A stretch of 64,000 nucleotides of DNA from Podarcis cretensis (taxonomy: Eukaryota), in the NCBI GenBank assembly GCA_951804945.1, contig OX638155.1:13578001-13642000 (forward strand), written 5' to 3'. The notes beneath the pieces are model-generated. The model saw only the letters and a program-made list of their open reading frames with translations, did no database searches and had not been told where the DNA came from. This document shows, piece after piece, positions 30,064 to 34,830 of this stretch; the first letter of the stretch is position 1, and every line of letters begins with the position of its first letter. The translations under genes and the position numbers were made by a program.

Positions 30064-30492
30064 TGTCAGGTGGTGGTGTGGTTGCTCGAGAGCAAACAGG
30101 CAAGACTCCAACCTGTCTTTTCCGGGCTTTATTATTAGTACAAACTATTTACAGTGCAGAGCGTTGCAAGTCCATGTCCGCTCAGTCGCTAGCAGAATCT
30201 GGGAGTGGGCGGTCCTTATACCTCCCCCAGCATAACAGTTGTGTGACCCCCATCCTTCTCCTCCCCTCTCTGTGCCCAAACCTACTGCGCAGAGTGGGCG
30301 CTGGCAAAGGGGGACTTGCCTCCCCTCCGCTTTGCTCAGGCTCAGTGTTGAGGCTCTCCCTAGCATCTCCTGGTCCCTGCACTGGAGGTGGGGCTTTCCT
30401 CCTTGCCAGATCTTCACAAGATCTTCGGAGGCTCCCTGTAACACAACTGCCCTTCCACCTCTCACCTCTGAGCTGATGGCAGTTCCCTGACA
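30064..30492 (-). mobile_element. Solo LTR (Gypsy-like), 429 bp, containing a conserved ORF
   Basis: TGTCA...TGACA termini with a perfect 5-bp TSD GTATC (30059-30063 / 30493-30497). Minus-strand TATAAG (30215-30220) and AATAAA (30128-30133). Confidence 0.9.
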
Positions 30493-30740
30493 GTATCCAA
30501 GAAGCTTCCTTGTTCCTGGTTTCAGGATGACCCTCTGTCTCTCCCCCCACTGGTAGATTTATCAACTTTTGACTTTTTTAAAAAGTACTGCCCACCTCCC
30601 CCTGGCTGGGCCAAGGGCGGCAGGGAGTGGGGAGGGAATGTATGAGGCTAGGGGCCAAAGTTATGGTGAACTAGGCAGCAGAAGTTCCCAGTTCATGGGC
30701 GGCCCAAATGGAATCTGGCATGCCCTAGAAAAGCCTAGCA

Positions 30741-30876
30741 CAGGCACAGGCAAACTCCAGCCCTCCAGGTGTTTGGGACTACAATTCCCATCATCCCTGA
30801 CCACTGGTCCTGTTAGCTAGGGATGATGGGAATTGTAGTCCCAAACCTCTGGAGGGCCGGAGTTTGCCTATGCCTG
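30741..30876. mobile_element. Palindromic hAT (Charlie-type) MITE
   Basis: 136-bp palindrome with a perfect 8-bp TSD GCCTAGCA (30733-30740 / 30877-30884). Confidence 0.95.
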
Positions 30877-31146
30877 GCCTAGCATGTGCCAATAAGCAAA
30901 TTTGGCAGATCTGGGTGTTGGAGGCAGTGTGCCCTCCTTAGGGAGACCCACCTAGCTGCAATACAGAAAACTTTTAGGGCTGAGGATTTCTTGGAGATGT
31001 TTTTATTTTCTGCTCCTGCTTTTATGTTGGTTGTTGTCCCCCCCCCCCTTGTGATTTGCTGTTGCATTGTTTATATTACGAGATTGTTTATTTCTGCAGC
31101 TATTTTGTTTTATCATTATTTGCAGGTATGATTTTACTGCCATTCG

Positions 31147-31490
31147 CAGACTCTCCAAGTGTCCCTATTTTCCAGGGACATCCCTGATTTAGAGAAGCCA
31201 TCCCAGTTTCTGGATTTGATCCCAGAATGTCCCACTTTTCCTTAGGATGTCCTTATTTTCACTGGTGAAATGCTGGAGGGTATGGAGTTATCTGACCCAC
31301 ATGCCATCTGAAGGCAATCCTGTATAGGTAAGATTTTTAAATGTTAAATGTTCTATTATGTTATTGTATATGTTGGAAGTTACCCAGAGTGGCTGGGGCA
31401 ACCCAGTAAGATGTGTGGGGTATAAATAGTAAAATTATCATTATGGAATAGGACGTCTGTGTTTTCATTGGAGAAATATTGGAGGGTATG
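31147..31490. mobile_element. Non-autonomous DNA transposon containing an L2 3' tail
   Basis: TIR-like CAGACTCTCCAA...TTGGAGGGTATG with TGTCCC repeats. The internal segment at ~31340-31440 matches the L2 tail. Confidence 0.6.
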
Positions 31491-32299
31491 CATTTTATTT
31501 GATTTTAAGTTGCAAGCTACTCTGGTTTCTGTTCAAAGAAAAGGAAGGGATAAATGAATAAAACAGTTGGACTACCCCTAGGGTTCATCGGCTTTCAGAT
31601 AGTACTTTCCTGTTAGCAAATGTTTTTCACTGGTCAGACTAGTGTGCAATAATAAATGGTTGGCAATGCTACCCAAAAGGCAGACTAGAAGGATTATGCT
31701 AGTTGTTGAAAGAAGGTGCAATGGAAAATATCACAAAAGATTATTTTCTTCAAATACAGTAACTGTGCTTTATTGAGAAAGGCTTTAAAAATTGATGGTT
31801 GGTGCCAAATGATGTCCAATATCTGTCTGGTTGTTCTGTGTTTTAGAGGGTTATTGCTGGCATGTGCCATTTATTATTTTAGGAAGAGGATGGAAAGGAC
31901 TTTTTCTGGTTATCGTTTCAAGTAAAGGAGGGTTTTAATTTTGTGCAGAGATCTCTTTTCTTTCAGGATTCACTCTCATTGAAAGTGCAGGCAATTCTCC
32001 CTTCACACAAGCACAGCAGGCTTAGCACATGATTGCAGCAAACATGAAACATACACAAAACCGGGACTATAAGACTAACAGACATGAGAATAAGCACCTT
32101 CTTATGCATCAGTGTGCCAAGAAATCCCAAACTCTCCAGAGGGATGTTAATAATATAAAATAAATCAATGGCTTGTAGAGAGACAAGGGGCATACCAGGT
32201 ATGCCCCAGGATATCCAAAATCAGAACAGTCTAAACAAAATAAAAAATAAAAAATTGTACAGCAGCCATGACTTGCCCAGGACAAGACTGGAGCAGCTA

Positions 32300-32652
32300 T
32301 CATCATCATCATCCTCATTTATTTATACCCCACCCTTATACTGTTTATACACTGCCCATCAGGCTGGGTTTCCCCAGCCACAGCATATATAAAAACATAG
32401 TAAAACATCAAACATTAAAAACTTCCCAATACAGGGCTGCCTTCAGATGTTTTTTAAAAGTTGTGTAATTCTTTATCTCCCTGACATCTTACGGGAGGGT
32501 GTTCCACAGGGAGGGTGCCACTGCCGAGAAGGCCCCCTGCCTGTTCCCTGTAACTTTACTTCTCACAGTGAGGGAACTGCCAGAAGACCCTCAGAAGTGG
32601 ACCTCAGTGTCTGAGCTGAATGATGGAGGTGGAGACACTCCTTCAGGTATAT
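32300..32652 (-). mobile_element. L2 LINE 3' end
   Basis: Same family as 11312-11690 and 36212-36548, with a (CAT)n/TTTATT tail. Confidence 0.85.
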
Positions 32653-33118
32653 TACTTAGTCCCTGACCAGGTTGCTGCAATGGAACTTAATGAGGTGCTG
32701 TAGGAATGCAGAAATTAAGGGCAGGTATTCAAAACAACATAGCCTTTCAGGCATAGACTTTATAATGGAAGTTTGCATAGTCTCCAGTAATTAGCTAAAG
32801 AATATGACCAGCTTCTTTCTACTGCTAGGTGCCTGACAAGACTAAAATGTGCAGTTGCCGCAGAAGAAAAATAACACAAAGCAACAAAGCCCCTTTAAAG
32901 CACAATTAGGCATAAGACTATAAACAATCATAGCTTATCCATTCATTAGTTTATCCACTTCTGCATTCAAAGAACAGTGAAGTTCTTTGTTCATATGCTT
33001 ATTTCAGAACGTTTTGCACTCTTAATTGCTTAAACTCTTCTGATTTCCTGCCTAAATATTCCACTTGCTGCTATCTCACAAAATAGTATTTTATTTAAAT
33101 AGCTCTACCTGTTATCAC

Positions 33119-33486
33119 GGTGGGACGCAGGTGGCGCTGTGGGTTAAAGCCTCAGCGCCTAGGACTTGCCGATCGAAAGGTCGGCGGTTCGAATCCCTGC
33201 GGCGGGGTGCGCTCCCGCTGCTCGGTCCCAGTGCCTGCCAACCTAGCAGTTCGAAAGCACCTCCGGGTGCAAGTAGATAAATAGGGACCGCTTACCAGCG
33301 GGAAGGTAAACGGCGTTTCCGTGTGTGACTCTGGCTCGCCAGAGCAGCGATGTCACGCTGGCCACGTGACCCGGAAGTGTCTCCGGACAGCGCTGGCCCC
33401 TGGCCTCTTAAGTGAGATGGGCGCACAACCCCAGAGTCTGTCAAGACTGGCCCGTACGGGCAGGGGTACCTTTACCTTTACCTTTT
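33119..33486 (+). mobile_element. Sauria SINE, full length, young CpG-rich subfamily
   Basis: TSD TACCTGTTATCAC (33106-33118 / 33487-33499). About 5 substitutions relative to the 16314 copy. Confidence 0.95.
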
Positions 33487-33719
33487 TACCTGTTATCACA
33501 TCTGATGGATTTATGGGAAACTAACATGCACTCCCCTAGGTGGTATTCAGTCTGTCCCCATAGTAGAAGTATCTAAACAAAGAATGAATACATTTTTGTT
33601 TAGGCGCTTGGATCATAAAGGAAATTGACTTCTGTGTGAGGTCCTACGGATTCTTATCACTGCTGATTTTACTGTATTATTTGTGATTTTATTACCGCAA
33701 GGTTGTTTTATTTACAAAC

Positions 33720-33817
33720 ACCGGCTCCCTCGGCCTATAAAGTGAGATGAGCGCAGCAACCCCAGAGTCGTTCACGACTGGACTTAATTGTCAGGGGTCC
33801 CTTTACCTTTACCTTTA
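33720..33817 (+). mobile_element. Sauria SINE 3' fragment
   Basis: CCGGCTCCCTCGGCC...GGGGTCCCTTTACCTTTACCTTT. Confidence 0.85.
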
Positions 33818-34395
33818 AGCTGCCCTTAGTAAGCTGCCTCCAGGTTGGAGGAAAGGAGGGGTAAAATATTCTCTGAATATTGTCTTTCAGACTCTCTTTT
33901 TCTCAAACCTGACCAAGCCAAACTCCTGTAATATCTGCACATTCTTTCTTAATCATTTTACAGCTGTTTCACACGTGGATTTTTTCGACGCATTCTTAGG
34001 GGGATACATACATACATCAAATTTACTTACAATCTTCTCTCTACTCACCCCCATCTACCCCCCACCTTTACTGAAAATGACAGATATTAAACACATCTCT
34101 TATTTGGTGGAAAAGAGTACCGTAGTTGGCGCTTGATTTATATTGTCCTATGAATAGATTTAGCAATAGGGGATGACAGTTCTGTCAGTCAGTTCTGCTG
34201 TTACCATTTCTCACCTCTCCTGGTGGCATCCTTATCTATTATCGATATCAGTAGAAGAGAGAGAGAGATTTCCCATAAACACCCTGGCCTCCAGCCAGAC
34301 AGGACATTGTGTAACTAGTGATTAACTGAAGAGGCAGCACATGAGATTGCAAGGGTTTGTGGTCTTAGCACCATGTCTGGAAACATAACTAAAAG

Positions 34396-34830
34396 TGTAA
34401 TGGGAATAGGGGTTGCTCGTGCGTAAATGGCCTGCTGCTCTAGGCAACGTTGTCTGGCTAAACCTTTCCCTGGCTGACAGCCCTTACTCCGTGGCTGTGT
34501 CAGTCACTGGCAGAATCCGTCAGTGGGCGTTTCCTGAACTTTTTCCAGCATAAAAGTTCTTTGACACCAAGTCTCCGCCTAGCCTCCCTGCGCAGAAGCT
34601 TTCTGTGCAGAGTGGGCGTGCCCAGTGGAGGTCCTGTGCTCTCCCCGCTGGTCTCTGTGGAAGTGTCTTGGACCCCTCTCTCCGAAGTCCTCCCAGGCTC
34701 CCCTTTCTTCCTGGTGTCACGCCGATTTCCTTCCCCACAGGAAGTGAGCTCTCTTTCCCTACTGGGTCCTTCTCCTGCATCGCTGCTGCGCCTTACCTCC
34801 TCTCCTGTCTCCAATGGCAGTTCCCTGACA
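34396..34830 (-). mobile_element. Solo LTR (Gypsy-like), 435 bp, same lineage as 30064-30492, containing a conserved ORF
   Basis: TG...CA termini with a perfect 5-bp TSD AAAAG (34391-34395 / 34831-34835). Same first 17 nt on the minus strand (TGTCAGGGAACTGCCAT) as the 30 kb LTR. Confidence 0.9.

Follow-up and report, generated by a model that had tools for sequence, protein, structure and literature searches.

A selected end of pol inside the LTR of a lizard chromovirus, and a likely docking arm on its integrase

The window analysed here is a stretch of 64,000 nt from Podarcis cretensis (GCA_951804945.1, contig OX638155.1, 13,578,001-13,642,000, forward strand), and all positions below refer to it. 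It contains two solo LTRs on the reverse strand: copy A, of an A-type family (30064-30492, 429 nt), and copy B, of a B-type family (34396-34830, 435 nt). Copy A is flanked by a 5-bp target site duplication (TSD) at 30059-30063, pairing with 30493-30497, and copy B by one at 34391-34395, pairing with 34831-34835. The copies share TG..CA termini and their first 17 nt, and both TSDs are perfect; the coordinates and duplications given for two independent insertions in the initial annotation were reproduced. A hexamer resembling the poly(A) signal AATAAA was read from the sequence of copy A (30128-30133, reverse strand), and inspection of the copy B LTR found no hexamer of this form. None of the eight long open reading frames of the window has a Pfam match.

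The two LTRs align without gaps over 43 codons and a TGA stop, at 30182-30313 in copy A and 34500-34631 in copy B (both on the reverse strand), which encode a basic module with RRR and LLCW runs. A recount agrees with the initial annotation: 25 of the 43 residues are identical and 11 of these are encoded by synonymously different codons. Mismatches by codon position number 11, 11 and 18, and the similarity of the block exceeds chance. In copy B the reading frame of the family begins one base inside the LTR (VRELP...) and is open for 109 codons plus TGA (34500-34829, reverse strand), with an acidic Ser/Gly-rich linker preceding the basic module. In copy A the family frame is broken by stops and by a 20-nt deletion in the linker, the copy being 429 nt long against 449 nt in a close relative; its open 5' stretch (SGNCHQ...) lies in another frame, which joins the module because of this deletion. 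The stop-free frame reported from the 5' edge of both LTRs thus holds for copy B, whereas in copy A it is a shifted frame that is open. The frame of the solo LTRs has no start codon, as had been remarked, and the two copies are passive carriers of it.

The chromovirus to which both LTRs belong is a Ty3/Gypsy element that is abundant and self-priming, of the Tf1/Sushi type. Besides the LTR termini and TSDs, the element has the gene order gag, PR, RT, RH, IN without env, a chromodomain at the integrase C-terminus (Pfam Chromo, E=1e-8) and a self-priming primer binding site (PBS) with complementarity to an 11-mer of the LTR. The available parts of two sources describe the same gag-PR-RT-RH-IN-chromodomain order, without env, in Tf1/Sushi chromoviruses (V-clade: Sushi-ichi, Amn-ichi/ni/san), and TGT..ACA ends, shared by the lizard element, in the Sushi att motifs, with a self-priming PBS in place of a tRNA PBS; a tail of about 200 residues, half of it encoded by the LTR, is absent from those descriptions and sets the lizard element apart (PMC6317226, PMC3601003).

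In two-LTR copies, the integrase part of pol is followed by the chromodomain, an acidic linker and the polypurine tract, after which the frame enters the 3' LTR and terminates with the stop of the 43-codon module. The boundary at the polypurine tract is crossed in frame in 27 of 30 fetched internal copies, and 15 of the 30 are stop-free from the chromodomain to the terminal stop; these copies had been ranked with a query that stopped at this boundary, a choice that biases the set towards copies in frame. Natural frames of 1007-1354 codons terminate at the same stop, and pol ends within the 3' LTR of a 5.5-kb element. The tail behind the chromodomain measures about 200 residues, half of them LTR-encoded. 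UniRef polyproteins of Podarcis muralis, which are automated models, end in the same module, so that the tail is already present in existing annotation, as a region without a named domain. The frame is the last ~110 codons of chromovirus pol and not an accessory gene. Of the two origins initially proposed, the C-terminal extension of the integrase through the polypurine tract is borne out by natural copies and the accessory protein is not. MMTV sag and nef are open reading frames that overlap U3 and are expressed as separate spliced genes. The frame described here lies within U3 as they do; it has no start codon and is continuous with the integrase in every lineage examined, and a separate protein made from spliced or internally started RNA is hardly credible.

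Sequence comparisons indicate that the frame is kept by purifying selection acting on the protein. Among 92 copies, the ratio of non-synonymous to synonymous changes is 37:50 for shared and 69:29 for singleton substitutions in this frame (p=1.8e-4), against p=0.16-0.74 in the five other frames. The dN/dS between copies A and B is 0.22, compared with 1.05-1.35 for four of the other frames. In the antisense mirror frame, pairwise dN/dS is likewise low (0.32) and stops are few (4 of 92), as a mirror of the coding frame would be expected to show, whereas comparing shared with singleton changes there gives no significant result (p=0.17); with this exception the expectation of selection in one frame alone is supported. 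Between families, synonymous sites are close to saturation (pS 0.61-0.79), with pN at 0.11-0.34. Two families interchange TGA and TAA as the terminal stop, four different codings occur for the second Leu of LLCW, and the usual lengths from the LTR start to CW (247, 250, 277 and 298) preserve the frame.

Part of the module serves a second role, absent from the initial annotation. Codons 36-40 overlap the self-priming 11-mer, located on the reverse strand at 30196-30206 in copy A, where it marks the inferred start of R and A-type internal copies have a PBS that pairs with it, and at 34514-34524 in copy B, to which the PBS of B/C-type two-LTR copies is exactly reverse-complementary. Pairing is 11/11 at four B/C-type junctions and 10/11 at one, 9/11 at two A-like junctions with co-varying bases, and 10/11 in family E; two solo-LTR flanks picked up by the same PBS scan reach 6-7/11. 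Folding of the region from R to the PBS recovers the primer pairing, with an overall z of -1.0. The self-primer accounts for part of the nucleotide conservation at the module end. The whole block might be conserved for promoter, transcript start and self-primer, in which case the open frame would follow incidentally from the purine richness of the LTR and the tail would be a tolerated extension without function. The co-variation with the PBS, the nearly invariant codons of D39 and S40 (91/92 and 90/92 in nucleotides) and a TTATG word about 30 nt upstream of the primer agree with this explanation. However, the selection signal remains once the TATA-like and self-primer codons are removed (19:36 against 107:64, p=3e-4), TTATG is exchanged for synonymous codons in one subfamily, and both the stop swap and the excess of pS over pN speak for the protein. 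A purely nucleotide-level function is thus largely refuted for most of the block, holds for codons 36-40, and is very improbable as an account of the whole.

The initial view of Gypsy-type LTRs as normally non-coding was too strong, since pol extends into the 3' LTR in plant CRM and some Bingo chromoviruses, according to the available text of PMC3059260 and PMC3605345. The lizard element resembles CRM group A and beet Bingo in this respect (PMC3059260, PMC3605345, PMC6317226, as far as available). In CRM group A, as described there, a CR motif replaces the chromodomain, priming is by tRNA-Met and the elements are centromeric, whereas the lizard element keeps an upstream chromodomain, uses a self-primer PBS and is dispersed. 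Its copies are scattered over almost all chromosomes, without clear enrichment on small ones (50 matches against 39 expected, p=0.051).

The tail layout is conserved deeply, across lineages with ~56% Pol identity, as seen in family E and P0155. The LLCW and basic run is retained even in P0155, although a search of this genome with the P0155 query did not recover its tail; in family E the basic module is poorly conserved, and its terminus matches the LLCW module weakly (hhalign probability 3%). Among the matches, the named ones come from P. muralis and P. lilfordi; since repeats rarely enter protein annotation, these matches do not delimit the taxonomic range. The initial annotation did not recognise the module from any named family, and in agreement with this no Pfam family covers the LTR frame of either copy, and neither Pfam nor Atlas gave a match to the module. 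An Atlas search with the copy B tail gave no usable match and one with the family E tail a single lead (0.77), and a PDB search with the tail matched the chromodomain alone. In an alignment to HP1, two of the three aromatic-cage residues of this chromodomain are replaced, and targeting may therefore have shifted to the tail. The module could then be a CR-motif-like domain directed at a specific host chromatin protein, with the FxGF motifs described below binding a partner other than a TND. The precedent of a targeting motif encoded in the 3' LTR of plant CRM group A (PMC3059260, available part), the degenerate chromodomain and the retention of the module in P0155 favour such a domain; the dispersed copies, the weak conservation in family E and the lack of Pfam, Atlas or non-chromodomain PDB matches count against it, and we consider it unlikely.

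The part of the tail 5' of the LTR contains one or two motifs composed of a predicted helix, an acidic linker and FxGF. The linkers have 8-9 residues with Ser/Thr, inside the 8-16 by which TND-interacting motifs (TIMs) are defined. In motif 2, F, G and F are conserved in 31/31, 29/31 and 30/31 sequences; in motif 1, F is found in 30/30, G in 27/30 and the last position is F in 20 or Y in 10; x varies in both. Two motifs occurred in none of 20000 shuffles under a regex that was composed after the motifs were seen. The tail is predicted to be largely disordered (mean pLDDT 56, mostly <55), and the model places low-pLDDT helices at residues 62-69 and 112-115, at both motifs. TIM/IBM peptides of LEDGF/p75 and HRP2 partners (JPO2, KMT2A, IWS1) combine a short hydrophobic helix, an acidic Ser/Thr linker and FxGF (PMC9987994, available part). 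The tail motifs share the acidic Ser/Thr linker, here of 8-9 residues, FxGF and the tandem arrangement, and may share the short helix with its Phe; they differ in sitting on a retrotransposon integrase, where TND binding is putative. By these features they match published TIMs and are candidate TND binders. The family E motif had two PDB matches at E<=10, one of them a fusion of the LEDGF IBD with the motif of JPO2 (5YI9, E=1, below significance), whereas no LEDGF-partner peptide came up in the four remaining motif searches of the PDB. A complex of motif 2 with the LEDGF IBD from P. muralis, predicted without alignments, scored 0.15 against a mark of 0.34 that was not tried on peptides, and this score speaks neither for nor against binding.

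Taken together, the frame is the selected end of a chromovirus pol that continues from the integrase, by way of chromodomain and polypurine tract, to a stop in the 3' LTR. The long tail that it would yield probably acts as an arm by which the integrase docks, both to enter the nucleus and to be tethered to chromatin, and we consider this explanation as a whole probable. There is about an even chance that the FxGF motifs bind the TFIIS-N-terminal-type domain (TND) of a reader protein of the host, with LEDGF/p75 and HRP2 as examples and prior phosphorylation by CK2 as a possible requirement, and a similar chance that the LTR-encoded basic module serves nuclear localisation and/or nucleosome-DNA binding. 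Integrases of Ty1, Ty5 and MLV carry short, host-binding C-terminal targeting or NLS motifs. The lizard tail resembles these, and sag and nef, by layout, with no sequence similarity shown. The full scheme, in which the tail mimics host TIMs and tethers the integration complex to H3K36me readers of the LEDGF/HRP2 type while the basic module shares its codons with promoter and self-primer, is advanced more tentatively. The TND is also bound by lentiviral integrases, which use a prearranged structured site for this and not a linear motif (PMC10854676, available part).

LTR read-through is already known in plant CRM chromoviruses. A literature search, with Repbase/GyDB entries, primary TIM and Sushi/Amn papers and supplements outside its scope, turned up no vertebrate element for which such read-through, or a TIM on the integrase, is described; PMC4657000, from its available text, concerns a Copia element irrelevant to the tail. 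U3 is thus protein-coding almost throughout in this group of vertebrate chromoviruses, overlapping the promoter region and the self-primer, and thousands of solo LTRs thereby preserve a record of the selection to which an integrase tail was subject. Should LEDGF or HRP2 prove to be bound by the FxGF motifs, a non-infectious retrotransposon would employ a lentiviral integration cofactor by mimicry of a host motif, reaching the cofactor of HIV through a linear motif, and the motifs would offer a direct peptide-level test of insertion-site choice in vertebrate chromoviruses with a degenerate chromodomain.

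The two minus-strand LTRs at 30064-30492 (copy A) and 34396-34830 (copy B) both display TG..CA ends and perfect 5-bp target-site duplications, and share a gap-free block of 43 codons (30182-30313 and 34500-34631) in which 25 residues are identical, 11 of them through synonymous codons, and which closes with a common TGA, all as described in the initial annotation. The frame was also said to be stop-free from the LTR 5' edge in both copies, which holds for copy B (109 open codons) but not for copy A. The family-wide frame begins one base inside the LTR (VRELP...); copy A is 20 nt shorter than a close relative and has stops in this frame, and its open 5' stretch therefore belongs to another frame. 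The LTR families are large: a first look turned up 1554 candidates for one LTR and 3453 for the other, with 40 scored in each case, while the module had 6833, of which 150 were scored. Other repeats include three 365-nt interspersed copies, 98% alike (16313-16678, 33119-33484 and 37285-37649), surrounded by many older SINE-like copies. Elsewhere in the genome, two D-type LTRs lying 32 kb apart (L137 and L138, C5:96.53-96.56 Mb) have an identical 22-base upstream flank, which suggests segmental duplication.

Two-LTR copies of about 5.5 kb code for gag, protease, RT, RNase H, integrase, SH3 and a chromodomain. A script delimited the LTRs in four copies and left two others unresolved; in the four, LTR pairs are 97.5-98.8% identical and target-site duplications are present. 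At L061:1755-1790 the gag stop is TAA, and the start of protease overlaps the end of gag by a short stretch in another frame, an arrangement that suggests frameshift expression of pol. Beyond the chromodomain, the integrase frame continues across an acidic region and the polypurine tract and enters the 3' LTR, confirming the proposed continuity with pol. Among the 30 best of 143 internal matches, a sample biased toward in-frame copies by a query ending at the LTR boundary, the boundary is crossed in frame in 27, and 15 have no stop between the chromodomain and the flagged one. Natural frames spanning 1007-1354 codons terminate at the flagged stop. An A-type internal copy reads through likewise, but has a frameshift within the module. 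Automated Podarcis muralis polyproteins in UniRef terminate in the same module, which bears no domain name there. In another automated Podarcis model, P0156, a SEC7 domain is fused to the LTR frame of the A type, through either misprediction or exonisation. One copy (L116:511-1308) has about 21 codons of the LTR-encoded linker duplicated in tandem and in frame in its 3' LTR; its 5' LTR lacks this duplication.

The module is under purifying selection in this frame, as had been proposed. Pairwise A-versus-B dN/dS is 0.22; four other frames give 1.05-1.35, and the antisense frame with the same third positions gives 0.32. We found 97 natural copies and excluded five for an indel within the block. 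With CpG transitions left out, the non-synonymous to synonymous ratio in the remaining 92 is 37:50 for variants shared by at least four copies versus 69:29 for singletons (p=1.8e-4); the five other frames give p=0.16-0.74. Stops occur in 9 of the 92, a count lowered by anchoring copies with a protein query. On the strand opposite LTR B lies a 148-codon stop-free frame (34462-34908, forward strand), 328 nt antisense to the LTR. Within the module it mirrors the coding frame, with stops in 4 of the 92 copies and no selection signal of its own among them. Between four families (106 copies anchored on an 8-base word), pS is 0.61-0.79 and pN 0.11-0.34; two families use either TGA or TAA as the stop codon. 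The frame is kept from the LTR start to the CW codons in 80 of 111 LTRs. Length classes of 247, 250, 277 and 298 all preserve it; on either side of the main class lie 276 and 278, with 12 copies.

Part of this conservation has a second source. The 11-mer directly 3' of the 5' LTR (PBS, L061:680-692) is complementary to module codons 36-40 (34514-34524 in the window), consistent with the self-priming reported for Tf1/Sushi elements (PMC6317226). Pairing is 11/11 in four B/C-type junctions and 10/11 in one, 9/11 in two A-like junctions, with bases co-varying between families, and 10/11 in a distant family. The predicted RNA fold joins the two segments at an unremarkable energy. Transcription probably begins at the 11-mer, and nearly all of U3 would be coding. 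The overlap accounts for the near-invariance of the D39 and S40 codons. It leaves the rest of the module's conservation unexplained: selection outside codons 26-29 and 36-40 remains evident (19:36 versus 107:64, p=3e-4), and the TTATG word beneath LLCW is swapped for synonymous codons in one subfamily.

The element displays all tested features of Tf1/Sushi-type chromoviruses, an assignment based on such features. Read-through into the 3' LTR is already known in plant CRM and Bingo (PMC3059260, PMC3605345); the LTR motif of CRM replaces the chromodomain, which the lizard element retains, and both plant elements use tRNA priming instead of a self-primer. A literature search, with Repbase, GyDB, primary TIM papers and supplements outside its scope, returned no account of this tail or of integrase-borne TIMs.

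A profile searched against 1.84 billion representatives matched 1108; the best 150 are mostly chromodomain-only matches, and species-named relatives among those listed are all Podarcis. In a relative at about 58% integrase identity, both the acidic FxGF motif and the boundary residues are still present, and the protein ends in GLLCWKRR. Family E of the same genome (about 56% Pol identity) has a chromodomain and one helix-acidic-FxGF motif, reads through in 9 of 10 copies and has an open LTR tail of about 100 codons with a basic terminal stretch in 3 of 10; the likeness of its terminus to the LLCW module is weak. A further Podarcis muralis lineage (UniRef proteins P0302 and P0160) carries a W-L-F...FQGF variant that is rich in Ser/Thr and not acidic, and it too seems to continue past a purine-rich boundary.

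FxGF motifs are conserved across lineages with about 56% Pol identity. One or two stand behind the chromodomain (L061:5140-5345, L091:2035-2247, L157:1654-1728, L114:1598-1828) and resemble LEDGF/HRP2-binding TIMs, combining a helix, an acidic Ser/Thr linker of 8-9 residues and FxGF, the features that define TND-interacting motifs. Their Phe and Gly are nearly fixed and x is variable. FxGF is present in all known LEDGF and HRP2 partners, several with tandem motifs (PMC9987994). Of 20000 shuffles, none produced two motifs and about 0.4% produced one, the pattern having been defined once the motifs had been seen; this pattern occurs in five of the 150 listed proteins, all relatives of the lizard tail. 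The structure model (mean pLDDT 56) has a folded chromodomain and a disordered tail in which short helices form at three sites, namely both FxGF motifs and LLCW. The chromodomain lacks two of the cage aromatics of HP1. Searching the PDB with the family E motif gave two matches at E<=10, of which one is the JPO2 motif complexed with LEDGF (E=1); four other PDB motif searches gave no LEDGF-complex peptide of this kind, so binding is a lead only. Judged from sequence, the tail motifs may mimic LEDGF partners, a tentative reading to which we give slightly less than even weight. The LTR-encoded module matched nothing in a family search and carries a net charge of +9 to +10 in B and C types; by analogy with integrase C-termini, it may serve in nuclear import or nucleosome binding.
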